Part shown: positions 19,786-59,216 of the stretch, piece by piece
Position numbering within the stretch: position 1 is the stretch's first letter
Layout of the letters: each line of letters opens with the position of its first letter
From: Eledone cirrhosa
Lineage: Eukaryota
Assembly (NCBI GenBank): GCA_964016885.1
Contig: OZ024741.1
Location: 321,532,001-321,596,000 of the forward strand
Direction of reading: 5' to 3'
Length of the DNA stretch: 64,000 nt
Program-made: the position numbers and the translations under genes
The notes under the pieces: generated by a model
What the model saw: the letters and a program-made list of their open reading frames with translations, nothing else
Told to the model about the DNA's origin: nothing
Databases searched by the model: none

Positions 19786-19829
<44 letters not shown>

Positions 19830-26589: not shown

Positions 26590-26690
26590 TGTGCCTTTGA
26601 TTGCTTCTGTGCTTTTGACTGCTTCTGTGCCTTTGACTTCTTCTGTGCCTTTGACTGCTTCTGTGCCTTTGACTTCTTCTGTGCCTTTAT
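26590..26690. repeat. 18-bp minisatellite (TTCTTCTGTGCCTTTGAC)n
   Basis: About 5 units. Expanded version at 54863-55105. Confidence 0.85.
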
Positions 26691-27594: not shown

Positions 27595-27932
27595 ACAGTA
27601 GTGTGGTGTGGTGTAGTGTGATGTGGTGTAGTGTAGTGTGGTTTAGTGTAGTGGACAGTGGTGTGGTGTAGTGTAGTGGAGTGTGGTTTAGTGTAGTGGA
27701 CAGTGGTGTGGTGTGGTGGAGTGGAGTGTGGTTCAATGTAGGGTGGGGGATATGGTGTAGTGGAGTGTGGTGGGATGTAGTGTGGTAGCATGTGGTGTGA
27801 TGGCATGTGATGTGATGTGGCGTGGCGTGGTGAAATGTGATGTGATATGATGAAATGTGGTGTGGTGTGGTGAAATGAGGTGAGAGGAGGTAATGGCGTG
27901 CGGAGTGATTTGATGTGGTGTGATGTGATGTG
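27595..27932. repeat. (GTGGT/GTGAT)n pentamer satellite
   Basis: Directly visible. Also at ~28900-29470, ~57200-57570 and ~58660-58990. Confidence 0.9.
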
Positions 27933-28257
27933 AAATTTTTTCATCCTATTTTTCATGTGCTATCAACTAATCCAATCTCCAAGATTCTTGAAACTGACTT
28001 TTTCCCAGGAAAACAGCGGGGTGAGGTGGTGCCCCCTTCACCCGGATAACCCCTGCTTACTCGGAATTTTCTCTTTGATTCTATTTTCATGCGTTATCAG
28101 TGAATATGACTTCCAAACCAGTCAAAGACAACTAGCTTTGGAGAAAGAGGAGAGGGAGAGGGGAAGAGTTTTGCAGATCTACACCCCCACTCACATGTTG
28201 TGGGACTTAATCATTTTCGGTATATTTCCTAGATGCTTCCAATCAACTTATTTCCCT

Positions 28258-28525
28258 GGGTTAGGTTTAGGGTTGGGGTAATGTTTAGGGTTTAGTTTTA
28301 GGGTTGGGGTAATGTTTAGGGTCTAGTTTTAGGGTTGGGGTAAAGTTTAGGGTTTAGTTTTAGGTTTGGGGTAAAGTTTAGGGTTTAGTTTTAGGTTTGG
28401 GGTAATGTTTAGGGTTTAGTTTTATGGTTGGGGTATAGTTTAGGGTTTAGTTTAAGGGTTGGGGTAATGTTTATATTTAGATTTAGCTTGGTTTGGTTTA
28501 GATTTAGAGTTTAGGGTTGGGGCTA
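28258..28525 (+). repeat. ~31-bp TTAGGG-rich minisatellite
   Basis: Unit TTAGGGTTTAGTTTTAGGGTTGGGGTAATGT. Paralog at ~57972-58300. Confidence 0.85.
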
Positions 28526-29737
28526 GATTTAATTTTATGTTTAATTTAGTTTTAGTTTCCACATCCCAGGAAAAAAATTGATTCAGAGCAACTGAAAGGT
28601 CAGATTAGTTGATAGCACTCAAAAGGAGACCGAAGAAAAATCATTAGGGTATATATCTACAAAACGAAAATGGTTTTTCCACCTGCTTTACCCCTCCTTT
28701 TTTCTAGAACAACTAATCATTTCCAACTGGTTTGGAGGTCACATTCGTTGATAACATACGAAAAATCTTAGAGAAAACTCTGGGGGTTAAATGAGAGAAG
28801 TGCATCCACCTAAGTTTTCCATGAAGAGAGAGTCAATAACAAAGATCTTGGAGATCAGATTAGTTGATAACACATGAAAAAAAGATGAGGAAAAAATGTT
28901 GGGTGTTATGTGGTGTGGAGTAGTGTGGTGTGTTTTTATGCGGAGTGATGTAGTGAGGAGTGGTGTGTTGTGTTGTGGTGTTATGTGGTGTGGAGTAGTG
29001 TGGTGTGTTGTAGTGAGGAGTGGTGTGTTGTGTTGTGGTGTTATGTGGTGTGGAGTAGTGTGGTGTATTCTTATGTGGAGTGATGTAGTGAGGAGTGGTG
29101 TGTTGTGTTGTGGTGTTATGTGGTGTGGGTAGTGTGGTGTGTTTTTATGTGGTGTAGTGTGGTGTGTTCTTATGTGGTGTGATGTAGTGAGGTGTGGTGT
29201 GTTGTGTTGTGGTGTGGAGTAGTGTGGTGTGTTGTAGTGAGGAGTGGTGTGTTGTGGTGTGTTTTTATGTGGAGTAGTGTGGTGTGATGTAGTGAGGAGT
29301 GGTGTGTTGTGGTGTGTTTTTATGTAGAGTGGAGTAGTGAGGAGTGGTGTGTTGTGTTGTGGTGTTATGTAGTGTGGTGTAGTGTTGTATGTTTTTGTGT
29401 GGTGTGGTGTGATGTGGTGCGGTGCACTGCGATGTGGTGCGGTGCGGTGCAGTGTGGTGTTGTGCAGTGAGGTTCTTCATCTTTATCTTTCTCTTCTTCA
29501 TCTTTGTATTCATCTTCTTTGTTTTGTCTTCCATCTAAACAAAAAAATATATATATAAAACATATATGTAGCCAATCTCTCAGACTTTTACAAAGCTCCA
29601 AGGAGATAACTTTAATATAAGTGGTGTGTTCCTGAACAGAGATACTACAACATAGCTTAAAAGCTATATATATACACATATATATATATATATATAAATA
29701 AATATACACGGGTGTGTATGATTGTGTATAGAAGATT

Positions 29738-30185
29738 ATATTAAGTGTTAATTGAACAAGTAATTTCATGCTTTCGCAATCTTCAGGTTCATAGCTAAAT
29801 AAACAATAATAATTCTTAGGGGTATAAAAACCCTAGAAAATCTTATTTACATCATTTCTAAAAATAGCAAAACAATTGATGCTTTGGATAGAGCCAAATA
29901 GAAGTCGTTAGACATGCTCAACCAACCATGACGCCTAAACCAATCAGCTTCAGTAATCCAGTAAAACTACACACCAATTGGTCGAAATACAGTTTTCAAA
30001 ATTTAGCATTCTGTAGCCACTTTTCACTGTATATAAGGCACAAAATTTACCCATCTCATTACAGTTGAAAATTGCAAACTTGGCTGTCACCACAGAATAT
30101 GAACCTAAAGATTGCGAAAGCATGAAAGTACTTGTTCAATTAACATTTAACACTTAATATTCTACCATACTATTCAGATTACATT
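29738..30185 (+). mobile_element. Penelope-like pseudo-LTR remnant (deleted version of 59340-60415)
   Basis: Short inverted arm 29738-29792 fused to the long arm. Matches 60026-60415. Confidence 0.7.
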
Positions 30186-30804
<619 letters not shown>

Positions 30805-31189
30805 ACTTGACGATGAGCATTCTAGTTGTTCAATAAACTGATTGAATAATACAAACGATGTTTTAATATACAGATTCATTATTTGTGTATATATAATATA
30901 TACAAAGCATATAAATAAATTTACAGTAGAATAACATAGCAAATATGTTTTAAATATATACATAAATAACATTACCAATGCTTAAATAACATTATAAATT
31001 GCTCGCGATTCTTTCAGAAGGATATATTCCTTTAATGTTGCAATATTAAAGAAAATATACGTATATATATACATACATATATTTATTCAACTAAGGAAAG
31101 TTGGTTGATTGAAAATCTGCCGACTCTTTCATAAGAGATGACAAACACTCAACAGTTTATGTTTATCCGGAGTTTTATTATAATAATTG

Positions 31190-31290
31190 TTTCTACTTTG
31201 GCACAAGGCCAGAAATTACTCAGTGTATTACTGGTACTTTATTTTATCGACCCCATAAGGATAAAAGGCAAAGTTAACCTCGCCGGGTTA
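31190..31290. mobile_element. Fragment of a second SINE-like family (also ~34920-35150 and ~38045-38150)
   Basis: Recurrent GGCACAAGGCC..., AAGGATGAAAGGCAAAGTTAACCTC and ATTTGAACTCAGA motifs. Resembles an abundant octopus repeat (from memory, unverified). Confidence 0.55.
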
Positions 31291-31558
31291 TAATAATAAA
31301 CAAGAAAGACGGTATCATTTGCCCATCCCTATTTATTTTACTATGCGTATTTCATTTGTATAACGTCTGCCCTACGTGTTCTCATATCAACGGATATCAA
31401 CGAATATCTCATATCAACGGATATTTACATTTTGCATGGATTTTTGTCGGAAGAAAACACGTAGGGCAGATATTATAGAAATGACATATGTCTTCGAAAT
31501 AAGTATAATAAAATTAATAGGGATGAACAAGTGAACCGTCTTTCTTCTTTATTATTAT
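31291..31558. mobile_element. Imperfect foldback / MITE
   Basis: Inverted arms TAATAATAAACAAGAAAGACGG...TCTGCCCTACGTGTT vs AACACGTAGGGCAGA...CCGTCTTTCTTCTTTATTATTA. Confidence 0.65.
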
Positions 31559-31588
31559 ATATACACACACACATATATATATATATAT

Positions 31589-32395
31589 ATGTTGAAAAGG
31601 TAACACACTAGAGAGAGATATACAGTGCGCTATCAATAAAACAGGGAAAAAACCACCAGTGTATGGAATCTATAACCTATGAAAGACAGACTATAGACAC
31701 GATAATTAAAAATATAAATTAAAGCGTAAATAAATACCTCTGCAACTATATAACACGTACAAATCCAAAGAGATCTGTTTCGCCAGTAAGTTGTTGGCAG
31801 AAATGGAATAACCCCAGTTGCTCAGCGTGTATAAGGCTATACATTTCAGACAACACTAAGAGAATTTTAAAAGTGACTGTCCAGCTACACGTGGGAGAGA
31901 GAAGTCACAGCGTGTTTAAGGGCAGTGAACCAGTGGCCTCTGAGGGACGAGCTACTAGAAAGGGCAACCCAAAACAACTCAGAGAAGTGTGCTCAACCAA
32001 ACAGAGGGATAGGAAAGACTGCTATAAGGAGCGAAATATCACGATAAATTAACGGAGCCATAGACCCTTGCCATTCCCTGTAAATAATATGCTCAAAGGA
32101 GAAGAAATCCTGAGCTCTATAAAATACAATATGTTGAAAAGGTAACACACTAGAGAGAGATATACAGTGCGCTATCAATAAAACAGGGAAAAAACCACCA
32201 GTGTATGGAATCTATAACCTATATAAAGGAAGACTATAGACACGATAATTAAAAATATAAATTAAAGCGTAAATAAATACCTCTATAACTATATAACACA
32301 CGTACAAATCCAAAGAGATCTGTTTCGCCTTTAAGTTGTTGACAGAATTGGAATAACCCCGGTTCCTCAGCTTCAGACAACACTGAGAGAATTTT
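31589..32395. repeat. Direct repeat pair of ~270 bp, ~540 bp apart
   Basis: ATGTTGAAAAGGTAACACACTAGAGAGAG... begins at ~31589 and ~32131. Confidence 0.8.
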
Positions 32396-32678
32396 GGCGC
32401 CAAACTTTTCCTTTTGAAAGAATAATGTGATTTGTCACGTGATATTACCTCTAAATATGTGAATACATACACAGCATTCTCCTCACGAAGGGCGAGAGTG
32501 GCGATCGCAAACATATATACATATACACGCAAACACATACACATCACACATATATATATACACGCAGAAACACACACATACAATAACGACGAGTACTACG
32601 AATCTGGAGGAGCGAATGATGGAGAAGATGAAGCTCTCTGCCGCAGAATAAATGGTATTTAATTTTAATAATAATACT

Positions 32679-32737
<59 letters not shown>

Positions 32738-32824
32738 GGAGGTGAGTTTTATCGTAGTACAATAAAGCAATGCAGATATCGGATAAGAAGCACTCTACAA
32801 TTTGTAGGACTGGAGTATAAATAA

Positions 32825-33182
32825 TATATAAGATCAAAAGATGGTTAAAAGAGTTCCATGTATTTTATTATGCGCATTTCAAAAACAAATATCATCATGC
32901 AATAACATTTGCGTTTTCGTCAGATAAAATAGGGAGACATGATATGAAGGTTAAAATACACTTGTAAATAGTGCAGTTTTAATGATATGTTGATTTAATG
33001 TAATGTTGATATATATATAATGATATGTTAATTTAAAACTGCACTATTCACAAGTGTATTTTAATCTTCATATCATGTCTCCCTATTTTATCTGACGAAA
33101 ACGCAAATGTTATTGCATGATGATATTTGTTTTTGAAATGCGCATAATAAAATACATGGAACTCTTTTAACCATCTTTTGAT

Positions 33183-33190
<8 letters not shown>
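32825..33190. mobile_element. Foldback MITE with ~155-bp near-perfect TIRs in a TA tract
   Basis: TATAAGATCAAAAGATGG...GTGCAGTTTTAA vs TTAAAACTGCAC...CCATCTTTTGATCTTATA. Confidence 0.8.
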
Positions 33191-33223
<33 letters not shown>

Positions 33224-33298
33224 GAATTGATTATCATTATCGTTTTTATGGCAAAAGATAGACAGAGAGGGAAAGAGATAGACAGAGGGAAAGATTTT

Positions 33299-33348
<50 letters not shown>

Positions 33349-33723
33349 AGAAAAACGAGAAAAAACGAGACCCTTAGAAACGAATAAGAGTCATCAAAGC
33401 GATCATATGTATTGCTTTAAACTGTAATGCGAAGGGATGCACTAGTATTTGAGGTACCATCATTTGGGATTTTAACCCCCGGACTTTTCCCTCCCGGTTT
33501 TGAAATTTAGGGAAAATTTAGGGGTGACTGGGAATATTTCATAATGTAGGGATTTTCTTTTCCTTTTCTATCATTTCTTATTTATGTATTTATATATTTA
33601 TTTATCTACTCTCGTGATTGATATTCCGACAAATGTTAGGGGTGTATTTTGGTTTTTTATTATGTCAGGTATAGCATCCAAAAATTTCTCCCTTCCCCCA
33701 ATATATATATATATATATACAAA

Positions 33724-33802
33724 CACAGTGTCCCAAAAAATGTATACACATTTCAACAGCAAAGTAATCAAAGTGTGTATATATGTTGGAGGGGACACCG
33801 TG
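33724..33802. mobile_element. Tc1/mariner-type MITE (degenerate copy of 5389-5466)
   Basis: CACAGTGTCCCAAAAAATG...GGGACACCGTG. Confidence 0.65.
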
Positions 33803-33848
33803 TGTATATATATATATATATGTGTGTGTGTGTATGTGTAACTAGTAA

Positions 33849-34087
33849 AACTGTAAAAATGCAGCGGTATATTCTAATTTGGCCCTTTTAAGGGCCACAT
33901 ATATTTTCATTTAAGTAACTCCACTTACATCTATATGCTTTAATAAAAAAAAAATAATAAAAAACGCGTGAAAAAAAAAAATTTTTTCATTTAAGTAACT
34001 CCACTTACGCGTGGTAGTAATACGGAAATAAACGATGTTTTGCTTTCATCGGCTGCTTCGACTGACAGCTAATAGCGTTGTAGTGCC
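33849..34087 (+). mobile_element. Merlin-like terminal fragment with histone stem-loop
   Basis: Stem-loop GGCCCTTTTAAGGGCC at 33881-33896 plus flank. Ends in TIR CTGACAGCTAATAGCGTTGTAGTGCC at 34087. Confidence 0.78.
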
Positions 34088-37368: not shown

Positions 37369-38629
37369 ACTACATTTTACGTATTGTCTATCCTGATTGA
37401 TCATTAATTTAGTTTTTATTAGCTTTCTAATATATATATCTTTACTCGGCTTCCTTCTGTTATGATATATAATAGGCTACGAAGCCGGTAAACCCTAGAG
37501 GACGCAGCACATCGCTATAGCGTTTCACCAGCCTCTTCCCTGTTTTATGTAGATGTAACACGATTGTCTTAACTGGCCGCAATTCATGGTGTCTCTGACA
37601 CTTACCGGCTATGTAGCCTCTTCCGTATATAAAACAATTTGGTGAGAAGCTATTTCTAGCAGAGCGAGCTGCCAAGTAGTGTCTAGAATAACATGTAAGT
37701 GGACGATAAGGTAGCCAGAGGAACTGACATTTAAAAATTTATTTGTAAAAAGTATCAGGTATTTGATATTTTTGTATCCCAATAAAAACAACTTCAAATA
37801 TGTATATTTGATTAAGTATAAATGTAATATTTGCCTTGCTATTTCAAATATATATTTGTGAATAAGTATGTAAAAAAAGTCCTATTGATGTGGTCGGGGT
37901 GTAAATGAAATTTTGCAAATGTTTACAATTAAAAATTACTTTTATTGTATCTTAATAATTGCGAAATTATAAAGCAACCAGCCACTTATTTTTACACGAG
38001 TGGTTCTGATTTACTTTTTTAATATATTTTTATTGCTTCTATTTTTGGCACAAGGATGAAAGGCAAAGTTAACCTCAGCGGGATTTGAACTCAGACCACA
38101 ACTCTTTGCTGTAAAGTATGGCGTCCTACCCGCTACCGATACTGCCAAATAGGGTGGGTGAATATTTTTTTAATCTGATAAGAACTCAAAACATCGCTAC
38201 AATGATGCGAGCCTGGACAGTGAGGGAACTTCGTCCAATGCATGAAAAAAAAAAAAAAAAGTACACCGAATTCCTTTTCATGAAAAAAATAAGCAATAAT
38301 GAAGATTTTCATCTAATTGAACTAAATATAGAAAAAAAATTGCAGACAAACTATATATATATATATATATATAACAAAGGAATTGTGGTAAGGAACCAAG
38401 AGTGGGAAATAGGAAATTTCCTATATATATAAGCAGCTCTTTACCAATATATATATTAGTAAAGACCTGCCAAGTTTATCTAACAGAACTAAGTGAATGA
38501 GAACATAGTTATATAACTATATAACTGTACGTGTAAAATTAATTAATATGCAAACTGGTCAGAATTTTGTAAAAATAATTAAAGCAAAGCACATCGATTA
38601 GGAGAGGTAACTTAAATGAAAATATAGGT

Positions 38630-38645
38630 GGCCCTGAAAAGGGCC
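38630..38645 (-). terminator. Histone 3' stem-loop of H4
   Basis: GGCCCTTTTCAGGGCC-ACC on the minus strand, ~30 nt after the stop. Confidence 0.95.
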
Positions 38646-38675
38646 GGTGACATACAAAACTAACAGATATTTAGC

Positions 38676-39677
<1,002 letters not shown>

Positions 39678-39706
39678 GCTGGTTAATGTTTTTAACATTT
39701 CAAAAT

Positions 39707-39722
39707 GGCCCTTTTTAGGGCC
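39707..39722 (+). terminator. Histone 3' stem-loop of H3
   Basis: GGCCCTTTTTAGGGCC, ~30 nt after the stop. Confidence 0.93.
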
Positions 39723-39997
39723 CCCTATTTATGTACAAAGTATTTCGATGTTCATTGATATACGATTATTTTCTACTTGATTTGGCACTACAACGCTATT
39801 AGCTGTCAGTGCAAACAGGCGAAGGTGACGTCACTCGTCAAACATCGTTTATTTCCGTATTACTACCACGCGTAAGTGAGTTTTCACGCGTTTTTTTTTT
39901 TTGAGAGAGGGAAGACTTAAAAGGGCCAAATTAGAAAACAAGTCATGGTTATAAAGCATATCGATGTAAGTGGAGTTACTTGAATGAAAATATAGGT

Positions 39998-40013
39998 GGC
40001 CCTTAAAAGGGCC
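39998..40013 (-). terminator. Histone-type stem-loop downstream of the Merlin transposase
   Basis: GGCCCTTTTAAGGGCC-ACCTATATTTTCATT in transposase sense, ~100 nt after the stop at 40116. Confidence 0.7.
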
Positions 40014-40115
40014 AAATTAGAAAACAAGTCATGGTTATCAAATAAATTTGATATATTCATTTATATTTTCATTATTCAAAAGCATGTTTAGAAACATTTT
40101 TTTCACCAACCTTAT

Positions 40116-40967
40116 TCAAATGCATGGAATCAGATGACGGATATGTTCTAATAACTTTTGGAAAATTTCTCCTTTAAATTCATACCGCCACATGAATTCA
40201 ATGAGATGGGTTTGAAGCAAATTTCTGGCTGTCCCGTTTTCCCTTTTATTCCTATTTTTTACGTGTTTCCACAAGAATTCTATGTGATTCGTTGTGGCAA
40301 ATGTTACTGGATCAACCAAAATTGATCGAATGGTTCACCGTCAAATGTTGATAGCCTAGCTGATCGATCGTATTATAGGAATGCCATAGATCAGATATTA
40401 TGGTTGTCCCTGGCAATATACGATCCTGTATAATGGTTAAAAGTGTCTCCGCTGTCCTGTCTTCTACTGCTACTAAAATACATCTTCTGGTAGCAAAATC
40501 CCACTGTGTTTTCACAGAATGGCCACGATGGTATTACCTTCTCACGAATGCGCTTTCATCAATCTCGACAATTCGGTTTGGCCCGCCAAGCTTAATGTTT
40601 TGTGCCACATAGTACTCTGCACATACATCACGGCAAAAATTTCGCCAATCTGCTACGGCCACATTCGCGATACGACATTCCTCTGAAATCTTTTGCCCCA
40701 AAATATAATATATCAACTATTTGTTCACACTTCAAATTGCTATTTTCTAAAAATGTGCCTTTTCTAATAGAAACCTGTTTTCTACATGACCAGATAATCC
40801 CATCTGACACATTTTGTTTCGCTACTTCCAACATACGTTGACCACATGAAGGGCAGACCTTTTGTGTATTCAGAAGTCCTTGAATTTTCAACCAATTGAT
40901 GGTATCTGCTGTAGTAGCGGTAGCGATGGTTAATTCCCTTAACACTTGGATATATTATAGAACTCAT
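40116..40967 (-). pseudogene. ISXO2/IS1595-like (Merlin) DDE transposase, frameshifted
   Basis: Consecutive fragments CPSCG..WSC..SIRKGTFLE, DWRNFCRDVC, LGGPNRIVEIDESAF, VEDRTAETLL..ILPGTTIISDLWHSY, HLTVNHS..F-VDP and TNHIEFLW. These are the DE / SD / N..E motifs of DDE_Tnp_IS1595. Confidence 0.9.
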
Positions 40968-41268
40968 TTTTCAACTTGCAGATGCGTGTATTATCACAAA
41001 GTGAAGATTAAAGTTTATTTATTTACACGTGGTGTTGGTGATGATTGTCGCTGATTGGTGGGGATTGTCTCCATGAGGACTGTCGCTTGTCTCCATGGGC
41101 ACAGTATCCATGCTTTTGAATAAGGTTGGTGAAAATAAATATATAGGGTTGGTGAAAAAAATTTGATAACCATAATTTGGCCCTTTTAAGGGACACCTAT
41201 ATTTTCATTTAAGTTAATTCCACAGTTTGGTGAAAAATGACTTGTTTTTTATATTGATAACCATAACT

Positions 41269-41414
41269 ATGAAAATATGTGACGTCATTCGTCAACCTTC
41301 TCCTACTTTCACTTCTGACAGCTAATACCATGAACTGTAAAAATGCAGTTCATGGTATTAGCTGTCAGAAGTGAAAGTAGGGGAATGTTGACGAATGACG
41401 TCACATATTTTCAT
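41269..41414. repeat. ~69-bp-arm hairpin formed by two Merlin ends joined tail to tail
   Basis: ...CTGACAGCTAATACCATGAACTG-TAAAAATG-CAGTTCATGGTATTAGCTGTCAG... Confidence 0.85.
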
Positions 41415-41432
41415 GTATGTGTGTGTGTGTGT

Positions 41433-42970
41433 GCAAATTTCAATAATATTAAGACACCCTAATGGGGATTAAACGCCCTATAGTGAAAATTTTGGCCAAT
41501 AAATGGAACAAGATTTTACGAACTCCTATGGTTTTGGAGATAGACCCCCCCCCCCCCCATAACCATATATATTCTGAAATTACATTGCGCAGGGTACTTG
41601 TATAAGTATATTTCATTTTAATCAAAGGGTTCATCGGGGGCACAAAACCGCCGCTGAAACTTTATCTTCGATTTATATGAAATTTAAACCATAGGTAAAT
41701 GACAAGATATGATGCCTATTCACAAAATTTCAGCAAATTTCAATAAAATTAAAATACCCTAATGGGGGTTAAACCCCCTATTAGGGTTTACCGGTGGCAC
41801 AAACCCCTGCTGAAAATGTTTTCCCTTCTATTTATATGTAATTTAAACCATAGGTAAACAAGATATGATGCCTATTCACATCATTTCAGCAAATTTCAAT
41901 AAAATTACAATACCCTAATGGGGGTTAAACCCCCTATTAGGGTTCACCAGGGGGCACAAAATCCCCGCTGAAAATTTTTTCGGTTCGATTTATATTCAAT
42001 TTAAACCATAGAAAAAATGAAGAGATATGATGCCTATTCACAACATTTCAATACTATAAGACACCTTAATGGTGGTTAAACCCCCTATTAGGGTTCCCCG
42101 GGGGTACAAACCCCCGCTGAAAACTTTTCCCTTTCGATTTATATGAAACTTAAACCATAGGTAAATGACAAGATATGATGCCTATTCACAAAAGTTTTCA
42201 ATTGATATTTTGAAAAAAATTATTTACAAGAAACAAAATAAGAATAAGATTTAATAATGCAATTTTGATTTGATATTTTAGCAGTGTAACAGTATGTAGT
42301 CGTGAATTGACAGTGTAGTAAAATGATAGTATCCTCGTTGGATTGTCTTGTCGACATAGACGTGAGGGAAGGTCCCTCGATCTATTTACCATCTTTGTAT
42401 TTACAATATTCCTTTCGTCAGGTCGCCAATTCCAGCAGCATGGATTATAGATGTTATTGAGACACGAGTAACATAATGATTTCAACAGCAGAATTAGAGA
42501 TGAAATGTATGTTTATTTTTGATGTAGCACAAACAATGTTTGTTAACTTATATGGTTGAAGTTACACATAAAAAAAGGTTACAAAAGGGAATGTGCCATT
42601 GCGCCGGAAAGCCGGCGAGGCTAGGGTGCAAAATCTCACCGTTACATTGTGCGTGTTGCTGGTTCGAAGTTCCTGGTACAAGAGAAAGATTCTTCAATTC
42701 TTCCTCGGGGCGCGTAGGGATACATCCTCTTCTACTGGCGCTGATTGGCTGAACTGAGCCAAATCACGCACAGAGAATGTATGTGAGCCTGCGGAATGTA
42801 GGTCACTACAATACCTCCGAGCAGATGTTTTCCAATTTTTCATGCATTATATTTTACATTGAGTAATATTGAGTTTTTCTCCATAAATGATATCACTGAT
42901 TTAAAATCAATCATCATTTTCTTACAAAAAAAATGTGTGAAATGCAGCAAGGCGCTGGTAATTCGGCTAG
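41433..42970 (+). mobile_element. Helitron-like element copy interrupted by an insertion
   Basis: Matches 16627-17580 and ends CGGCTAG|T at 42970. Confidence 0.65.
42314..42810 (-). mobile_element. Candidate solo LTR
   Basis: TGTAGT...ACTACA termini ~500 bp apart. Minus-strand AATAAA near 42515. Lies within a ~550-bp block absent from the paralog at ~17420. No clean TSD. Confidence 0.45.
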
Positions 42971-43017
42971 TATATATATATATGTGAGTGTGTGTATATA
43001 TAAATATATGTGTGTGT

Positions 43018-45104
43018 GTGTGTGCTCATTATGTAGGAGAAGTGTAGGTAGAAACTCCATCCTCTGCCCATATGCAAACTATGGGTACACAAGAGATGTA
43101 GTGGGATCTCAGGAAGTTTAGTTAAGAATGTAGGCTTTACATGTAGCAGTTGCACCAGGACAGTAAGCAGCAAACAATCACTGAAAACAAGTGACATCAA
43201 AGTCTGGGAGGACTTGGTAAAAACAATACCGAATTAGCAGCGGAGGGGGGGGGGGCGTGTTCTGGAAGAAGTTGAGGGAGCTACTGCCATAGCTGGATAC
43301 AAAAGGCTTTTCCCTCAGAATAAAAGGTAGACTGTATGATGTGTGCATATGAACGGCAATGTTGCATGGTAGTGAGAGCTGGGCGCTGTATGTAGAAGAC
43401 TTGCGTAGATTAGAAAGGAATGAAGCTTGTATGCTCCGATGGATGTGTAATAGTAATATACGCGAACAGCAAAGCATAAACAAACTGAAAGAGAAACTAG
43501 GCATAAGAGGAATCAAATGTTGTGTGCAGGAGAGGAGATTATGTTGGTATGGACATGTGATTCGTATGAAGGATGACAGCTACATAAAGTCCCAGAAAGA
43601 CTTGAGATGAAGTGATAAAAGCCGACCTTGCCCAATTGCACCTCTGAAAGGCAATGACACAGGACCAAGAGCTCTGGCGTTATGAGGTAATACAGAAACC
43701 CCAACTTCCCACGGGACCAGGCCAAGGCTGAAACATACATACAGTATGCACCACTCCATCCCATCCGCCAATATATCTTTCATGAGAACAGGCCGAAACA
43801 CTGTAAAGTGGTCGTGATGGTGACACGGTAAAAAACACCCAGTCCACACTGTAAAGTAGTCGTGGAGGAATCACAACAAAAAACACCCAGTACTCACTGT
43901 AAATGAGCTTGGCATTAGGAAGGGCATCCAGCTGTAGAAACCAAGCCAAAATCAGTTCTTTATGAGCAAGACATGGTCACCTGACATAACATTGCCAGCA
44001 ATAGAAGGCACATGGCTCAGTAGTTAGAGCATTGGGCTTGCAATTGAAAGGTTGTGAGTTTAATTCTCGGACCGGGTGATGTGTTGTTTCCTTGAGCAAG
44101 ACACTTTATTTCACATTGCTCCAGTTTACTCAGCTGTAGAAATGAGATGATAGGACTGGGGTCCCTCATCATTCCACTGCAAAGTGGTGGAGGTGCCACG
44201 GCAAAAAAAAAAAAAACACCCAGCATTCACTGTAAATGAGGTTGGTGTTAGGAAGGGCATCCAGCTGTAGAAATCAAGACAGAATCAGTTCCCGTATGAG
44301 CAAGACAAGGTCAGCCGACCGGACACTGCCCACAACAGGACAACCCATGCTAGCGTAGAAGAACTGACATATAATGATGATGATGAAATATAACAGAGTT
44401 TTATAGCTTGCTTGAAGCATTGATGAATAGGAAACACAAATTTAAATTTTGAAAACCAAGTTGAGGGCCTTTGAACCCCAGGCTATTGCAATAGCTGCTC
44501 CTGATTTTAGATGTGGAAGACGGGACCTTTGGTACCACACAGTGACGTCCTGTTCGAGAATTGGTCCAGCTCTCGATGCGAAAGTTTGGTCTTAGTTCCC
44601 CCAGGATTTTCCATATGTATATCATTGCATATCTCTCCCGTCTTCATTCCGAGGAGTAGAGTTTCAGTTCTTTTAGACTCTCCCAGTAGTTTATCTCCAT
44701 TGTGGCAACCTTCTTGGTGTAGCTTCATTGGATTGCTTCAAGCTCCATGGTTAGTTTGATACTATGGGGGTGACCAAAGCTGGGAGCATTCATCATTTCA
44801 TTTTACGTCCACTTTTTCCCTGCTTGCAAGGGTGGAACGGGAACTGATTCTGGCTTGATTTCTACAGCTGGATGCCCTTCCTAACACCAACCTCATTTAC
44901 AGTGAGTGCTGGGTGCTTTTTTGCCGTGGCACCTCCACGACCACTTTGCAGTGGAATGATAGGGACCCCAGTCCTATCATCTCATTTCTACAGCTGAGTA
45001 AACTGGAGCAATGTGAAATAAAGTGTCTTGCTCAAGGAAACAACACATCACCCGGGTGTGAGAATTGAACTCACAACCTTTCGATTGCAAGGCCAATGCT
45101 CTCA
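43018..45104. mobile_element. RTE 3' fragment + SINE + CR1/L2 fragment + inverted SINE (paralog of 17655-19775)
   Basis: Near-identical ORF fragments to copy 1. Confidence 0.82.
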
Positions 45105-45109
45105 ATATG

Positions 45110-45159
<50 letters not shown>

Positions 45160-45162
<3 letters not shown>

Positions 45163-47730
45163 ATACTTTGGGAGGGTCATGTTGCAAATAAGAAACACAC
45201 GTACCAGTTGCTTTCACTTCAATTTATTATATATTTATAAATTTACAAATTTATAAATTTCTGGTTGGTTGGTTCCACAACCAGATAGTTGTTTATATAT
45301 AGTCATAGTTCTTTCGTCACACACTCTGTGACCTCTTCAGTGACTGGAGATTCCTTTCTTTGTTTCTGTGCCTCTCCTTTGTTCTGTCCTACGCCATTTT
45401 GTTTCTGTGTGTGTGTTGTGTGCTCAGTCTGCGCATGCGCCACATCCGGGTGTCTGTGTGTGTTTATGTTCATTTATCTATTTGTTTATTTACATGTTAC
45501 TGGTTGGTTGTTTGTTCTATGTGTGTGTGTGTTTTCATTTTGTCCTTAATTGTAAGTTGTGATGTTGCTGTTCCACTCGTATTTTCTATTTAATTTTGGT
45601 TGTAATTCTTTTATGTTTATTGCCTCTGTAATTTGTCTAAACATTGCGTCTTTTCTGTGTGTAGATTCTATTTTTATTTCTATGTTCTCTAATTTACCCT
45701 TGTGTTCTATCTTAGCATGTTGGTAGAGTACAGATGATTCTTTATTATCTTGAAGGTCTCGCCAGTGTTCATTTATCCGTTCCCCTACACTACGAGCTGT
45801 CTCACCTATGTACACTATATTTTTGTCTCTACATTGTCCTTCAGTACATCTTATGCTATACACTACATTTCTAGTTTTACAGTTAATATGGGGGCTTATT
45901 TTACAGGTTACACATTTCTTATCTATACATGAGGGTCTTTGAAAAGGGTATGTCTTGCTAATAAGTGTTTTTACGGAGGTACCTGGTCTTTCTACTATCT
46001 TAATATTGAGTTTATGTTTATTTAGGGCCCTTCTAAATTTGTAAGCTAGTTCACCTCTAGGGGTTGTATCGATGAACATTACACTCTGGTATTTATTGCT
46101 ATCATACCATGAGTTTATTCTATTAGCCTTGTTCCTAGTTCTTTCTATTCTATTCCAAAATTTGCTCCTATACAAGGGGCAGGTCCCATTTATGTCATTA
46201 TTTACCATTTTTTCCTATTTGGTTCTGGCTCCTCTATACACTCTGATTCTATCTCTCTGATTGTAGCCAGAGAACTGCATACGGTGGATGAAGTGTTGTA
46301 TGTGTCTCTCTAGTTCTTCGGGGTTGCACATGCGGGACACATTTCTCATCACCCGTACCAAATCCGCAATCAGTATGTTGATTTTGGTATGGTCCGAAAT
46401 GGCCGAGTTTCGGTGGATCAGATGTTTGGAAGTCATGGGTTTGGCATAATGGGAATGGAGGATTTGTTTTTTGTTGTTAATGGTATCTAACCAGAGCTCT
46501 GTGTCTAGTACAGGTAATCGATGGTTGGGGTGTTTACTTGGGTAGTCTATAGTAACTCTAATGCTCTGGTGGATGGAGTTTGCTATTTGCTGGATGCTTT
46601 CCATTGTGTTTTTCTCTAGTTCCTGACTGTTCTCTAGTGGGGGTGTCTTAACTACGATGTTTATATCATCTACGTAGCGGGAGTACATTATCAGGGTTAA
46701 GGGGTCTTCTAATTGTTCTTTAAGTTTAAGTTTAAGTCTACTGTCCCACCATACCATGAATAAGTTAGCTATGTCGCCTGCAATGCTAACACCAATGGCT
46801 GCTCCTTCCTCTTGGGCATATGTTTTTCCATTAAATTTGAGCATATGTTCCTTAAGGGTTAGTTTTATGCTGGCCCCTACCGCATGTGCAATCATTTTCT
46901 TCAGTTCATCGTGGTTTTCGGGTGTCCGTATGGCTCTGGTCCACCCGTTCCATCTATCTGTGTGGGTTTTCTTGGCCATTGAGGTAATGGTAGGTGGTCT
47001 GCCTCTTGCTGGTCTTGTAGGGCACAGGTTGCTAAGGTCATATGTGTCTAGGTAACTATTACTATAGGTAAGCTTAAGTAGGAGTCCCAGCTCACTGGTA
47101 TCAATCCCACGGAACTCAACCTTGCTCTCACTGATCATTTCTACGCATTTCTCCACAGCAAAATCCACGTCAATAGATGGATACAGGGACACAACATCCA
47201 TACTGCCTATTATGCAGTTTGTTAGGTCCCCAGATCGGTTACTCACGCCGATTCTGCTGAGGAGGTCCTCCGTGCTGTCACATACATCTGGGGACATTTC
47301 AATGATGGGGCGTATGATCAGGGAGAGGAAGTAGGACAGTCTATAGTTACTAGCAATGTTAGCTCCACAGACTGGCCGTGTTGGTGGTCCCGCGACAGGG
47401 TCACAGCCCGTTTTATGGTCTTTTCGAAGCCCATACAACGCCGGCACGTCACTGTTCCAGGCCTGGAAGTTGTTGGCGGTCCTTTTGTTGGGCTGCATTA
47501 TATTCGTCCACATCACCATATGGGCATTGAGGGCTTTTTCTCTATCCTCATGCTCCTGTGGTGTTACCTCTCTTGTGTTAGTGATGTGGGGTTGCATTGC
47601 CTGGATGTAGTTTGGCAGGCTGTCAACCGACATTCTGCCAGACTTGTCTGTTGGAAAGCATGCTATCTCTCCATTACGTGAGCGCTGCATGAGCTTACGC
47701 AAGCCATTTGCAAATTTTTCTGCGGGCTCG
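45160..47730 (-). mobile_element. Penelope-like element (RT + GIY-YIG), 5'-truncated, one frameshift
   Basis: 46215-47702 RT (SMDVVSLYPSI, GAAIG, RYVDD, LPVLD). 45546-46208 GIY-YIG (NVVYSIRC...YIGETARSVGERINEH). Not present at the paralogous position. Confidence 0.92.
45301..45345 (-). ncRNA. Minimal type I hammerhead ribozyme-like motif (Penelope 3' end)
   Basis: AGUCA-CUGAAGAG-GUCAC(loop)GUGAC-GAAA-GAAC-UA-UGACU, on the same strand as the element. Confidence 0.65.
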
Positions 47731-47979
47731 ATAAGGATAAATATATATCAAATATATAAGAACCGTAGAGCAAATATTTATTAAAATAACAGATTAAAGT
47801 TTAAGCAAAGAATCGGCTGCTTTCACCCTTAATGGGATCTTCTGAAACTAAAAAAAATCAATCTGTGAATGCAGAAGTAAATATTTCTAAGCCGACCTTT
47901 CCCAATTGCACCTCTCAAGGGCAATGACACACGACCATGACCTCTGGCGTCACACAGTAATACAGAAGACCCGACTAAT

Positions 47980-49870
47980 ACAACTTCCAAGATGCTCGCA
48001 GTGGACTATGCTTTTAGCATATTAACAAAAAATATGACTTCCGCTGCAATAAAAAATGACTAGCTTTGTAAATGGTATTTCCACCCACATCCTCCATCTT
48101 TTTTCTACAAAGCAAAAAAATAGTCAATTGGGAGCACCTTTAATGTCAGATTGGGTGGTAAGCGCACACAAAAAAAAAAAAAAGGAAACGGGAAGAAAAT
48201 GTTTCACATCAAGATCAATAGCTTGGTGCGATGTAGTATGGTGTAACTTGGTTTGGTTTGGTGAAGTTATGAAATGGAAACCAATTGTAAACGATAGATT
48301 CCCATGTCATATTCATTGATAATGTGTGGGAAATTAGTCATTTGCAAGCACCTTTGATGTTAGTTTGAGGTGGTAAGCACAAAAAAAAAAAAAGCAGGTA
48401 GCAAATTTGTCACATTGATCTCCATACCATGGTGTGATGTAAATGGTAGAAGTAGGTGTTCTGTAATAAATTTACCATATAGTGAAGTATTGTTATGGTG
48501 AATTTATGGTGTGGATTGGGATAGATTAATGTGCTGTAATGTGCTTTGTTATAAGTGAGGATTTAAATTTCCATTTTGATTTATGTTAGAAAAAATTTTT
48601 TCCTTCATTTTTGCATGTGCTATCAACTTCCAAGATGCTCGCAGTGGACTATGCTTTTAGCATATTAACAAAAAATATGACTTTCCCCTGCAATAAAAAA
48701 TGACTAGCCTTGTAAATGGTATTTCCACCCACATCCTCCCTTTTTTTCTACAAAGCTAGTAATTTTCATCAGGTTTCCATGTCATAACCATTGATAATAT
48801 GTGCATAAAATAGTAATTAGCGAGCACCTTTATGTCAAACACCAAAATCAATAGCTTGGTGTGGTGTGGTTTGGTGAAGTTTCTACAAAGATAGTAATTT
48901 TCGACAGGTTTCCATGTCATAATTATTGATAAGTGGAAAAAAAATAGTCAATTGGGAGCACCTTTAATGTCAGACTGGGTGGTAAGCCCACACAAAAAAA
49001 AAAAGGAAACGGGAAGAAAATGTTTCACACCAAGATCAATAGCTTGGTGCGATGTAGTATGGTGTAACTTGGTTTGGTTTGGTGAAGTTATGAAATGGAA
49101 ACCAATTGTAAACGATAGATTCCCATGTCATATTCATTGATAATGTGTGGAAAATTAGTCATTTGCAAGCACCTTTGATGTTAGTTTGAGGTGGTAACCA
49201 CAAAAAAAAAAGCAGGTAGCAAATTTGTCACATTGATCTCTATACCATGGTGTGATGTAAATGGTAGGAGTAGGTGTTCTGTAATAAATTTACCATATAG
49301 TGAAGTATGGTTATGGTGAAGTATATGGTGTGGATTGGGGTAGATTAATGTGGTGTGCTTTGTTATAAGTGAGGATTTAAATTTCCATTTTGATTTATGT
49401 TAGAAAAAATTTTTTCCTTTATTTTTGTATGTGCTATCAACTTCGAAGATGCTCGCAGTGGACTATGCTTTTAGCATATTAACAAAAAATATGACTTCCG
49501 CTGCAATAAAAAATGACTAGCTTTGTAAATGGTATTTCCACCCACATCCTCCATCTTTTTTCTACAAAGCTAGTCATTTTCGACAGTTTTCCATGTCATA
49601 ATTATTGATAATATGTGCGAAAAATAGTCAATTGCAGCACCTTTGATGTCAGATTGGGTGGTAAGAACACACACACAAAAAAAAAAGAAACAAAATTTTT
49701 CACACTGAGATCAAAAGCATGGTGTGATGTAGAATGGTGTAGTTTGTTATGGTGTGGTTGGGATTGTTGTAGTTATGACATGGGAACCTATTGTAAATGA
49801 TAGGTTTCCATGTTATATACATTGATAATGTGTAAAAAAATAGTCATTTGTGAGCACCTTTTAATCACTG
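47980..49870. repeat. Complex tandem repeat, ~640-810 bp units
   Basis: AAGATGCTCGCAGTGGACTATGC recurs at ~47989, 48632 and 49446. Confidence 0.8.
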
Positions 49871-50189
49871 AGATTAATAGCATGGTGTGATGTAGTATGG
49901 TGTAGTTTGTTATGGTGTGGTTTGGTTTGCTGTAGTTAGGTATGGTTTAGTTTGGTGTAGTTATAACATGGAAACCTATCATAAATTTACCACGGTATGG
50001 TATAATCTGGTTTGGTGTAGTGTAGGTTAGTGTGGTGTGGCGTCTTATTGTGTTGCATCGTATAGCGTGATTCTTTTTAAATTAAAATCATTAAAATGTA
50101 ATGCCTATCTTCTATATCTTAAAGAGTGACCTTAAATGTGATTGCAAATGACTTTTTTCTCTGGGTTATTGTTAGATTTAGGGTTAGTG

Positions 50190-53100
50190 TTAGGGTAAGG
50201 TTTACTGTTAATGGTAAGTTCATTGTTAGTGACTGTGTTACTGTAACTGTTACTCTTACAGTTACTGTTTGCGTTACTGTCTGCATCAGCGTTAGCATTT
50301 GCATAAGCGTCTATGTAAGCTTTTGTGTTATTGTCTATGTAGACTGGTGTTAGCATCTGCATTAGTGTTTGCGTAAGTGTCAGCATTTGCGTCAGCGTCT
50401 GCATTGGTGATAGTGATTGTGTCAGCATTTCCCTTAGCGTCTGAGTCAACATTAGTGTTAGCATTAGTGTTTGTTTCACTGGCTGCGTCTACGTCAGCTT
50501 CTGAATCAGCATTATCATTAGCGTCCGTGTCAGCACTTATGTCAGTGTCAGCATTTCCCTCAGTGTCAGCGTTTGCATCAGCGTGCACATCAGCATTTGC
50601 ATTAGTGTTTGAGTCAGTGTTAGCATCAGCGTTTGCATTTGTGTAGAGGTTAGCATTTGCGTCAGCATCTACATCAGCATTCACATAGCATTAGCGTTTG
50701 CGACAACGTTTCTTTTAACGTCTTTGTCAGCATTTCCGTTAGCGTCTGTGTCAGTGTTTCCATTAGCTTCTACGTCAGTGTTTACGTTAGCGTCTGTGTT
50801 TCCGTTAGCTTCTACGTCAGCATTTCCGTTAGCTTCTATGTCAGCATTTTCGTTATCTTCTACGTCAGCGCTCCGACCGCGTCTGTTTCAGCGTCAGTAT
50901 TTACATCTACATCAGCGTCAGCGTTTCAGTTAACGTCAATGTTTACGTTAGCGTCTGTGTCAGCGTTTACGTTAGCTTCTACGTCAGCGTTTCCGTTAGC
51001 ATTTCCATTAACCTTTCCTGTGGCGTCCGCATCATTGCAGCGTCTGCATATCCCATGTAAGCGTTAACTTCAGCATTTGCGTCAGCGTTAGCCTTAGCCC
51101 TAGCGTCCACATCAGCATTTGCGTTAGCGTCAGCATACACGTCAGCGCCGGCAAAACTGCCTCAAAATTTGTGTCAGCGTTAGCTTTGGCTTTGGCTTTA
51201 GCAACCGCATCAGCAATTGCTTTTTGGAGATCAGCTTCGGCGGTAAGGGTAAACGCTAACTTCTACGCCTGCTTCTACGTTAACAACTACGTCAGCGTTT
51301 ACGTTAGCTTCTACATCAGCATCTACGTTAGCTTCTACGTCAGCATCTACGTTAGCTTCTACGTCAGCATCTACGTTAGCTTCTACGTCAGCGTTTCCGT
51401 TAGCATCTATGTCAGTGTTTCCGTTAGCTTCTACGTCAGCGTTTCTGACCGCGTCTGTGTCAGCGTTTACGTTAGCTTCTTCGTCAGCGTTTTCGTAACG
51501 TCTACGTCAGCGTTTTCTGTTAACATTGGCATTTCCATCAACCTTTCCTGTGGCGTCCGCATCATTGGAGCGTCTGCATATCCCATGTAAGCGTTAACTT
51601 CAGCATTTGCGTCAGCCCTAGCGTCCGCATCAGCATTTGCGTTAGCGTCAGCATACACGTCAGCGCCTTGCAAAACTGCCTCAACATTTGCGTCAGCGTT
51701 AGCTTTGGCTTTAGCAATCCGCATCAGCAATTGCGTTTTGGAGATCAGCTTCGGCGGTAAGGGTAAACGCTAACTTCTACGCCTGCTTCTACGTTAACAA
51801 CTACGTCAGCGTTTACGTTAGCTTCTACATCAGCATCTACGTTAGCTTCTACGTCAGCGTTTCTGACCGTGTCTGTATCAGCGTCAGTATTTACATCTAC
51901 ATCAGTGTCAGCGTTTCAGTTAACGTCAGTGTTTACGTTAGCGTCTGTGTCAGCGTTTACGTTAGCTTCTACGTCAGCGTTTTCTGTTAGCATTGGCGTT
52001 TCCATCAACCTTTCCTGTGGCGTCCGCATCATTGCAGCGTCTGCATATCCCATGTAAGCGTTAACTTCAGCATTTGCGTCAGCGTTAGCGTTAGCCTTAG
52101 CCCTAGCGTCCGCATCAGCATTTGCGTTAGCGTCAGCATACACGTCAGCGCCGGCAAAACTGCCTCAAAATTTGCGTCAGCGTCAGCGTTAGCTTTGGCT
52201 TTAGCAATCCGCATCAGCAATTGCGTTTTGGAGATCAGCTTCGGCGGTAAGGGTAAACGCTAACTTCTACGCCTGCTTCTACGTTAACAACTACGTCATC
52301 GTTTTGTTCGCTTCTACGTCTGCGTTTACGTTAGCTTCTACGTCAGCATCTACGTTAGCTTCTACGTCAGCTTCTACGTTAACATCTACGTCATCGTTTA
52401 CGTTAGCTTCTACGTCAGCATCTACATTAGCTTCTACGTCAGCGCTTACATTAGTGTTTGTGTCAGCGTTTGTGTTAGCTTCTACATCAGCGTCTGCATT
52501 TACATCTACGTCAGCGTCAGCGTTTACATTTGCCTCTGTGTCAGCATTTACGTTAGCTTCTACGTCATCGTTTACATTAGCGTCTGTGTCATCGTTTACG
52601 TTAGCGTCTGTGTCAACGTGTATTAGCATCTGTGTCAGCGTTTATGTTACCGTCTGCGTCAGTGTTTATATTAGCATCTGCGTCAGTGTTCACGTTAGCA
52701 TCTGTGTTAAAGTGTGTTAGCGTCTGCGTCAGCATTTTCATTAGTGTTTGCATCAGTGTTTCCTTTAGCTTCTACGTCAATGTTTATGTCTGCGTTAAGG
52801 TTCACATTAGCATCGCTGTCATCGTTTGCGTCAGCATTTGCGTTTGCTTTAACATCTGCATCAACATTTGCGTCTGTGTTTGCATTAGTGTCTGCATTTG
52901 CTTTAGTGTTTGCATCAGCGTGAGCATTTGTGTCAGTGTCCACGTCAGCGTTAGAGTCTGAGTAGCATTTACATCAGCGTGTGCGTCAGAGTCTTTGTCA
53001 GCATTCGCCTTTGCACCTGCATCAGTATTCACGTTAGTGTTTGTGTCAGCGTAAGCGATTGTGTCAACATTTGCGCTAGCGTTTGTGCCAGCATAGCCAT

Positions 53101-54500
53101 CTTCGTTAGTGTCAGCGTTGGCGTTAGTGTTCGTGTTAGTGTTTGATTTTGTATTAGTGTTAGCATTTTTGTTAGTGTTAGTGTTCAGGTTAGTGTTAGT
53201 GTTTGTGTTAGTGTTCAGGTTAATGTTGACTTAGTTTTCTGGTTAGTGTTAGTTTTCAGATTAGGGCTCGTGTTACCTTTAATGTTAGTGCTCAGGTTAG
53301 TGGTTTATGGTAGTGTTAGTTTTAGTGGTAGTGTTAGTGTTCAGGTTAATGTTCGTGTTAATGTCAGTTTTAGTGTTAGTGTTCAGGTGAGTGTTTACGG
53401 TAGTGTTAGTGTTATTTTTTCCATTAGTGTTAGTGTTTCCATTAGTGTTAGTGCTAGTCTTTGTTTTTCTGTTATTGTTAGTGTTTGTTTTAGTGTTGAG
53501 GTTAATGTTAGCTTAGTTTTCTGGTTAGTATCAGTTTTCGTGTTAGTTTTAGTGTTAGTGTTCAGGTTAATGTTAGTGTTTTTTTAGTGTTAGTTTTTAT
53601 GGTAGTGCTAGTGTTTAGGTTAATGTTAGTTTTAGTGTAAGTGTTCAGGTTAGTGTTAGTTTTAGTGTTAAGGTTAGTGTTAGAGATTGTGTTAGTGTTT
53701 GTTTTTGTGTTAATATTTGTGTTAGTATCTCTGTTAGTGTTAGTTTTAGTGTAAGTGTTCAAGTTAATGTTAGTGTTAGTTTTAGTGTTAAGGTTAGTGT
53801 TAGAGATTGTGTTAGTGTTAGTATTTGTTTTTGTGTTAGTATCTCTGTTAGCATTAGTGTTTGATGTTTCCATTAGGGTTAGTGATTGTGTTAGCGTTAG
53901 TCTTTGTTTTTGCGTTAAGGTTAGCGTTAACGTTAGCATTAGTATTTCTGTTAGTGTTAGCATTAGTGTTTATGTTAGTGTTCAGGTTAATGTTAGCTTA
54001 GTTTTCAGGTTAGAGTTAGTGTTCAAGTTAATGTTAGTTTTAGTGTTAGTGTTAGAGATTGTGTTAGAGATTGTGTTAGTGTTTGTTTTTGTGTTAATAT
54101 TTGTGTTAGTATCTCTGTTAGCATTAGTGTTTGTTTTAGTGTTGAAGTTAATGTTAGCTTAGTTTTCTGGTTAGTATCAGTTTTCAGATTAGTGTTACTT
54201 TTAGTGTTAGTGCTCAGGTCAGTGTTAGTGTTTATGGTAGTGTTAGTTTTAGTGCTAGTGTTCTAGCTAATGTTAGTTTTAGTGTAAGTGTTCAGGTTAG
54301 TATTAGTGTTTACGGTAGTGTTAGTTTTAGTGCTGGTGTTCAGGTTAGTGTTAGTGTAAGTTTTAGTGTTAGTGTTCAGGTTAGTGTTTCTGTTAGTTTT
54401 CTATTTAATGTTAGTTTCCAGATTTTGTGTTTGTGTTAGTTTTCATGTTAGCGCTAAGTTCACTGTTAGAGCATGTGTGAGTGCCAGTGTTAGGGTAAGT
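50190..54500. repeat. Degenerate hexamer satellite, copy 2, with ~500-bp higher-order units
   Basis: Paralog of 21640-26240. Block CCTTTCCTGTGGCGTCCGCATC at ~51012, 51542 and 52009. Confidence 0.85.
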
Positions 54501-56591: not shown

Positions 56592-56663
56592 ACAAATATA
56601 TAGCTGATCTCTCAGACTTTCACGAAACACCGAGGTTAAACAGTTAATATAACGAGTGGGGAG

Positions 56664-56711
<48 letters not shown>

Positions 56712-59178: not shown

Positions 59179-59216
<38 letters not shown>

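Follow-up and report, generated by a model that had tools for sequence, protein, structure and literature searches.

Why does the gene of a cut-and-paste transposase run into the 3′ end of a histone gene? The question is raised by a 64,000-nucleotide stretch of the Eledone cirrhosa genome (hereafter the window), in which a Merlin transposase gene is followed, on its own strand and near several histone genes, by a hairpin of the histone type. The initial annotation had read this arrangement as a captured H4 3′ end, through which the transposase mRNA might be processed and timed like a histone message.

The classification of the element was borne out. An intact ORF of the family scored 68.8 bits against PF12762 (cut-off 27), the 26-bp outer terminal inverted repeat (TIR) starts with GG at both ends of MITEs and giant elements, and target duplications are 8 bp long, in agreement with the description of Merlin elements in the accessible text of PMC8101967 (TIRs of 24-462 bp starting 5′-GG, 8- or 9-bp target duplications and a DDE_Tnp_IS1595 transposase). 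The DDE triad (D151, D212, E249) is nearly invariant across 22 sequences, and among named proteins the closest come from Octopus bimaculoides and O. sinensis (73-85% identity). The window copy is dead, as had been stated, with four deletions and one insertion; two copies elsewhere (L010 and L015) retain intact ORFs of 300 and 302 aa. Among the 30 best matches, 26 transposase-bearing copies have a recognisable 3′ end, and these diverge by 0.7-2.9% from their consensus. The proposed span of the element (39784..41337) needed revision: position 39784 is indeed an outer end, but 41337 is the centre of an internal palindrome, and the unit continues past the window edge (Table 1).

Table 1. Features of the window, with positions counted from its first nucleotide
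Feature	Position	Strand	Remark
MITE of the same family	8131..9122		Four hairpin copies; ~310 bp past the H2A hairpin
MITE of another Merlin family	8872 to ~8985		Nested in the 8131..9122 MITE
Divergent H2A-H2B pair	9430..10526		Hairpins 9430-9445 and 10511-10526; a family insertion behind each 3′ end
Giant Merlin A	10945..34087		23.1 kb, without transposase; ~420 bp past the H2B hairpin
Blocks of giant Merlin A	~11109-11171; 33881-33942	-; +	
Local H4	38605..38987	-	Gene 38676-38987, hairpin 38630-38645; paralogue of the donor
H3	39267..39722	+	Gene 39267-39677, hairpin 39707-39722; host gene beside the insertion
Outer TIR of giant Merlin B	39784..39809	+	5′-GG start, pattern match; insertion ~60 bp past the H3 hairpin
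Downstream AATAAA	39848..39853	-	Within the subterminal repeat
Direct repeat of 40002-40041	39916..39955	-	97.5% over 40 nt; 5′ half of the hairpin only
H4-derived block, 63 nt	39951..40013	-	Hairpin 39998-40013 plus 47 nt of downstream flank; 61/64 against H4 C7:67458180
AATATA	40052..40057	-	Private change of the window copy; AATAAA in 22/26 family copies, 5′ of the hairpin
Merlin (DDE_Tnp_IS1595) transposase gene	40116..40967	-	Broken: four deletions, one insertion
Second H4-derived block, 46 nt	41179..41224	+	Antisense to the transposase and 5′ of its ORF; 42/46, one stem mismatch in the window copy
Internal palindrome	41269..41414		Two 69-bp arms and an 8-bp spacer; joins the transposase unit to cargo, no true terminus
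Cargo of giant Merlin B	41415..64000		Retroelement fragments and simple repeats, common to other giants; traced to ~65 kb

The hairpin behind the gene has the features of a histone 3′ end. Its block lies 102 nt 3′ of the transposase stop (40116-40118, minus strand), close to the ~100 nt first estimated, and the scan with Rfam Histone3 (RF00032) that the initial annotation had proposed placed it at the gathering cut-off (34.1 bits, cut-off 34). The other matches of this model in the window were two element copies (8173-8217 and 11132-11176) and the true H4 end (38605-38650). The block hairpin has the 6-bp stem and 4-nt consensus loop, forms in the predicted fold (z -2.5) and belongs to 20 window matches of a hairpin pattern that averaged 0.75 matches in shuffles. 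Genome-wide (3.0 Gb), the exact 36-mer of the block occurs in at least 502 copies and the TIR pattern of the family in 745 matches. Histone 3′-end sequences scattered in this way can be a source of annotation errors, and host transcripts could be cut at them.

Among 12 intact H4 genes, the best donor is C7:67458180, which matches the window copy at 61/64 and the 11171 copy at 62/64 positions. The neighbouring H4 was rejected as the source, with 52/61 for the window copy and 53/61 for the 11171 copy, the latter reproducing the manual count made earlier. The claim of a captured H4 3′ end therefore stands, including the sequence past the hairpin, but for a different donor than the adjacent gene. 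No family element is left within 10 kb of the donor. In short derivatives the block sits in both arms, facing outward, with two to four copies per element, and so it belongs to the subterminal inverted repeats as one of their modules.

A sister MITE subfamily (160 pattern matches, 104 TIR matches) records how the block arrived. Pieces of the C7:67458180 flank lie in both arms at nine of ten loci examined, spanning -28 (the CDS end, in one copy) to +379 and keeping the native 5′ flank, and the MITE consensus differs from the donor at 1/71 positions in the core and 3/143 beyond. Four sister transposase copies (84-86% protein identity) share this TIR type and these modules yet do not contain the block, and in a quick version of the protein tree the block-bearing ORFs form one clade (SH-aLRT 100, 13/19 rows), the six rows outside it being without the block. 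Because the sister MITE carries donor flank from -28 to +379 and the older sister transposases are without the block, the transfer ran from H4 to the transposon; it was a single, recent event. The reverse direction was rejected, as the downstream motifs are also found in divergent H4 paralogues, and flank specific to the donor locus, together with the CDS end, is present in the MITE. Capture of the H4 3′ end is accordingly a real event with a known donor, direction, single origin and position in both arms. A pre-capture subfamily (148 ends) and related transposases spread without the block. With a block-less ancestor, a long-flank MITE and a trimmed block all preserved, the steps of the capture are documented with unusual completeness. 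Pre-capture and long-flank MITE copies also cluster on C18 at ~4.9-12.6 Mb, some with identical flanks, which suggests duplication together with a host tandem array.

Transposase units and MITEs are accompanied by far larger forms. TIRs of the family pair at 23-31 kb, and exact 8-bp target duplications flank nine of nine giant pairs tested, one of them low-complexity (ATATATAT). The giant units are therefore moved whole by their outer TIRs, as expected of a cargo-carrying composite. On C1, 11 left ends could be matched with a partner at a distance of 20-50 kb. Small elements with both ends showed an exact target duplication in three of nine cases and a near-match in three more. For the window's own three elements (giant A, giant B and the MITE) no clean target duplication was found, and the right end and target duplication of giant B were not found to +20 kb beyond the window. 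One other giant, analysed over its full length, carries retroelement debris and simple repeats that match both window giants at ~85-96% in the non-repetitive parts; no histone CDS was detected inside giants or beside other family copies.

Several smaller observations concern the cargo and the surroundings. In the window, positions 45546-47690 (minus strand) hold a long reverse-transcriptase ORF and then a GIY-YIG-like ORF, which we take to be Penelope-like from their motifs, and at 59357-60383 a short ORF with GIY-YIG-like motifs is enclosed by a 371-nt inverted repeat (95%). One giant carries, inserted in its left end, an LTR-retrotransposon with gag, protease, RT and integrase-like frames (L156 ~700-4800; C1:5551000-5555100). 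A frameshifted H2B, forming a pair with an intact H2A, lies ~25 kb left of the window (L155; C2:321507006-321507991). In a second, block-less Merlin family, ends pair at ~28 kb (C1:205172258-205200306 and 205511469-205539608), which hints at giants in more than one Merlin family.

What the captured piece does in RNA was the central proposal of the initial annotation: SLBP and U7 snRNP would process the transposase pre-mRNA at the hairpin, yielding a non-polyadenylated, S-phase- or oocyte-timed mRNA and coupling cut-and-paste to replication. The two intact-ORF copies L010 and L015 do keep an intact hairpin and the full native downstream region, whose 47 nt were copied almost unchanged from the donor H4. 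The only fixed hairpin substitution is the fourth loop base, a variant seen in 9/49 host genes, and the block has not changed along the active lineage. The absence of an AATAAA between stop and hairpin, however, is true of the window copy only: the hexamer occurs there in 22/26 family copies, in 20 of the 22 at 44-66 nt before the hairpin and followed by U- and GU-rich sequence, and the four exceptions carry four different single changes. It is also present in the older subfamily. Poly(A) cleavage at such an AATAAA would cut 5′ of the hairpin, although the hexamer alone is no proof of a poly(A) site because the region is A+T-rich. The second AATAAA, downstream of the hairpin, is present at the position first given for it.

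The 5′ flank likewise speaks against histone-type processing and is as unusual as first noted. Host histone ends have an A at -3 in 48/49 cases and never more than one T in -5..-1. The coding subfamily instead reads AATTT before the stem, a flank found in 0/49 host ends, and has lost the A at -3; the last U of this flank is predicted to pair with the A after the stem, adding a U-A pair at the stem base. According to the accessible text of PMC10388802, SLBP requires two 5′ adenines for full affinity, and it is the non-coding sister MITE that has kept the A/C-rich flank. In addition, the block is found just as much in antisense orientation and in MITEs that code for nothing, and closely related transposases were active without it. 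Compensatory stem changes were not seen in the lineage. Compared with a replication-dependent histone mRNA 3′ end (RF00032), the hairpin and downstream region thus derive from a real H4, but the 5′ flank is replaced, a poly(A) signal lies upstream and the block also occurs in antisense. Since AATAAA precedes the hairpin and the coding subfamily lost the A at -3, we judge, from sequence features, that histone-type processing of the transposase mRNA is quite improbable. If the hairpin did function in RNA, the family would offer a direct test of a cut-and-paste element timed to replication through SLBP.

Two observations concern the U7 side of the host machinery. The best U7-like Rfam match among 65 candidates scored reached 29.7 bits, below the cut-off (L394; G000:C3:314686447-314686503, minus strand), and is probably due to chance. 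The 49 host histone 3′ ends (L031-L150 and the window) share a conserved GT/AAGT ~16-19 nt past the hairpin, followed by pyrimidine-rich sequence. In vertebrates and sea urchins the histone downstream element is purine-rich, and the 5′ end of U7 in this animal may be unusual.

A role in DNA was considered as well, namely that the block is a working cis-element of the ends, either a transposase-binding or target-recognition sequence that histone genes share, a role proposed for the subterminal repeats of Dada, or an outward terminator that stops read-out transcription. Between the older (L265, L275) and the young subfamily, the two block types acquired 0/63 and 0/46 fixed changes against 14/88 at fourfold sites (Fisher P 4e-4 for the 63-nt block), which makes a function possible; ORF changes along the active lineage are evenly spread, with a dN/dS of 0.17-0.26. 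Other subterminal modules, however, are about equally conserved: non-coding modules outside the block changed at 15/454 sites, and the block is not significantly slower (P 0.24 and 0.09). A mosaic ORF as the source of the rate gap left no sign, and A-to-G editing or CpG decay was not seen. The stretch from +35 to +71 is retained in every post-capture subfamily, the two to four copies per element face outward, and all eight giant pairs inspected end by end have a full block on at least one side, all of which would suit a cis-element, for which the subterminal repeats of Dada set a precedent (accessible text of PMC3706591). On the other hand, hairpin-less ends of one common type transpose (four independent insertions with target duplications), pre-capture relatives were active without the block, block-less Merlin families reach histone flanks too, and insertion distances vary, unlike the fixed site of Dada. 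We therefore regard a cis-acting role as unlikely, if less so than a role in mRNA processing. As to tempo, 41 changes separate the young ORF from the L265/L275 node, which itself gained four, although both copy sets are ~1-1.5% old; change thus seems to be much quicker in the active lineage than in inserted copies.

If neither use accounts for the block, its origin may lie in where these elements insert. We surveyed 57 near-full-length histone CDS, using H4, H2A and H3 with their flanks as queries and leaving out H1 and solo H2B. Within 1.5 kb of these CDS (131 kb), seven family ends were found in five events, including the window element, against 0.033 expected. Three of the five pattern-matched events lie in the window's own cluster; outside it, two family events remain against 0.029 expected (P 4e-4). 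Over all Merlin families, eight primary events fall within 1.5 kb of histone CDS, against ~0.09 expected ends, seven of them on the 3′ side of the gene, and Merlin events are spread over five separate histone clusters. Outside the window's cluster, three Merlin families contribute five pattern events (four independent) against 0.08 expected ends. Insertions range from upstream of the hairpin to ~700 bp beyond it, or from 18 nt past the stop to 770 bp past the CDS. The 18-nt case is a sixth family event, too degenerate for the pattern, in which a MITE follows a broken H2A and an older-type transposase fragment sits between this MITE and the hairpin, directly before the latter. About 1% of family ends lie near histone genes, tens to more than 100 times the random rate, and ~99% lie elsewhere; this baseline is the random rate rather than other highly expressed genes, and the counts are small and from one assembly.

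The bias is shared by relatives without the H4 piece. Two block-less Merlin families (34-41% protein identity; 486 and 836 ends) also reach histone flanks, with one insertion 411 bp past H3 (perfect duplication), one 318 bp past H2A and two nested in other Merlins; one of the two patterns had been widened for a variant seen at a histone-region locus, which introduces a small bias. Because block-less families behave in the same way, the block cannot be the cause of the bias; the H4 capture, in turn, is plausibly a consequence of it. The pre-capture subfamily had 0 pattern matches in the surveyed histone flanks, its 148 ends being too few to inform, and no family end was found at loci of histone-like fragments. 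One block-less family also placed 3/43 of its C1 events within 2.5 kb of block-family ends, against 0.03 expected, at sites without histone genes; the target may therefore be broader than histone genes, for instance a chromatin state. Three Merlin hotspots shared on C1 contain no histone or known RNA gene. One of them (L399; C1:360029000-360034000) has a 208-aa uninterrupted ORF with a helicase-like fragment nearby.

The opposing view is that the block is chance filler DNA and that there is no target bias, the histone clustering resulting from local hopping or open chromatin. The elements are full of templated duplications and deletions, three events lie in one cluster, and the hairpin in inserted copies decays at the rate of the rest (5/416 sites, 1.2%, against ~1.4%), all as chance would have it. 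Single cases of rare hAT-like and Tc1-like elements are likewise present near histone genes; these families and a piggyBac-like one had been picked from histone flanks and returned only the match used for picking, plus one further piggyBac-like end. Yet local hopping or chance sits poorly with five histone clusters, three Merlin families and the excess outside the window's cluster, or with the hairpins adjoining two further Merlins in other organisms (below). Given that histone 3′ ends make up ~1e-5 of the genome, it is improbable that one would be captured blindly. Overall, chance filler is the least probable of the readings weighed here.

The account that we favour, with somewhat better than an even chance of being right as a whole, combines the bias with the capture. 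Merlin elements insert preferentially within a few hundred bases behind histone genes, for a reason that may lie in chromatin. In one lineage, 400 bp or more from the 3′ end of H4 C7:67458180 entered the subterminal region, probably while a gap left by excision or insertion was being repaired. The piece was then duplicated as a mirror image in the second arm and shortened to the hairpin with 30-47 nt of flank. It now travels as a subterminal-repeat module, carried by transposase units of 1.7 kb, by MITEs and by giants of 23-31 kb. For the transposase mRNA, the most likely end is the AATAAA that precedes the hairpin. Rather than a proven device for self-timing, the captured piece is more likely a record of where these elements land.

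Known systems, compared through the accessible parts of the cited sources, share single features with this family. Like the Merlin superfamily (relatives of IS1016/IS1595), it has GG-starting TIRs, 8-bp duplications, a ~300-aa DDE_Tnp_IS1595 transposase and internal repeats, but it differs in carrying a histone 3′ end in each arm, in having mobile forms of 23-31 kb and in its bias for histone 3′ flanks; the words 'histone' and 'composite' are absent from the main text of PMC8101967. Dada (PMC3706591, PMC8869645) resembles it in its association with multicopy genes and in having subterminal inverted repeats with a counterpart in the target gene, as the block in both arms has in H4. Whereas Dada uses a fixed site in snRNA or tRNA genes, has 7-9 bp in common with the target and has no TIRs, the present family shares 46-63 nt, inserts at varying distances and not at a fixed position in the target gene, places ~99% of its ends elsewhere and encodes an unrelated transposase. 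Pokey, a piggyBac-type element that prefers 28S rDNA and also inserts elsewhere (PMC3706591), has a comparable partial preference for a multicopy gene but belongs to another superfamily with another target, and the accessible text mentions no captured target end for it.

Transport of host DNA also has precedents. Pack-MULEs (PMC6431247) and Helentron (PMC4067079) carry host gene fragments, those of the Culex Helentron including H4 and H1-type coding fragments; there, coding fragments lie inside the element, whereas here a 3′-end signal lies in both subterminal repeats of a cut-and-paste element. In the Drosophila Ising TE macro-transposons (PMC6431247), two elements bracket and move large host DNA, whereas in the present family a single unit of 23-31 kb has multiplied, its many copies being flanked by clean 8-bp duplications; the accessible text of that review does not name Merlin. 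The O. vulgaris repeat paper (PMC13282606) has Merlin in a table and, in its accessible text, never mentions histones, and the accessible parts of PMC5371812 and PMC13525598 describe no such case. Across the open literature so covered (Repbase, Dfam, subscription journals and supplements being outside its scope), we found neither a DNA transposon described as carrying a histone stem-loop nor any account of giant Merlins or of Merlin elements favouring histone genes. Target-biased DNA transposons are rare, and those described in these sources aim at RNA genes. A bias of several Merlin families, if true, would add protein-coding multicopy genes as a target and give a handle on how a transposase finds S-phase-active chromatin.

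Finally, relatives in other organisms were screened for the hairpin. In viral and prokaryotic collections the relatives were all distant, and a hairpin was not found. The hairpin is likewise absent from six relatives in the same genome (69-86% identity) and from 18 more distant loci there, one of which has a MITE 2 kb away. Among the best 80 of 187 metagenomic loci, a strict histone hairpin is absent from 78, many with short flanks, and present in two, L171 and L220, against 0.004 expected from composition. Real genomes also contain true histone hairpins. In L171, the best match (49% identity), the hairpin lies in sense orientation 84 nt past the stop, with an A/C-rich flank, the loop CTTT and no AATAAA in between, and scores 28.7 bits with Rfam, below the cut-off; in L220 (36% identity) it lies antisense ~560 nt upstream and scores 30.3 bits. 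The loop CTTT is given for C. elegans histone genes in the accessible text of PMC1924863. L171 falls in a neighbouring clade and L220 far away in the quick tree, and neither contig contains a histone CDS. Both are single contigs without a recognisable TIR pair, so the hairpins may be inside the elements or part of host sites.

These two loci bear on the RNA hypothesis in both directions: the canonical arrangement in L171 and the excess of strict hairpins support processing by SLBP and U7 snRNP, but relatives between L171 and the octopod family are without the hairpin, and on the same grounds the hairpin was rejected as an ancestral trait of the clade. Judged by sequence, the RNA mechanism is unlikely for the octopod family and would be most possible for L171. 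A wider reading joins the cases, with Merlins homing in on histone 3′ ends and repeatedly taking up the stem-loop (here, and independently in L171 and perhaps in L220), kept for a histone-type, replication-timed end of the transposase RNA or for targeting to the histone locus body. We consider this doubtful; were it true, a transposon would be exploiting the histone 3′-end machinery. Just past the stop of L171 (L171:1157-1178), there is also a faint likeness to late H3 codons, as if an H3 end had been deleted, although the match is weak (tblastn E 0.5).
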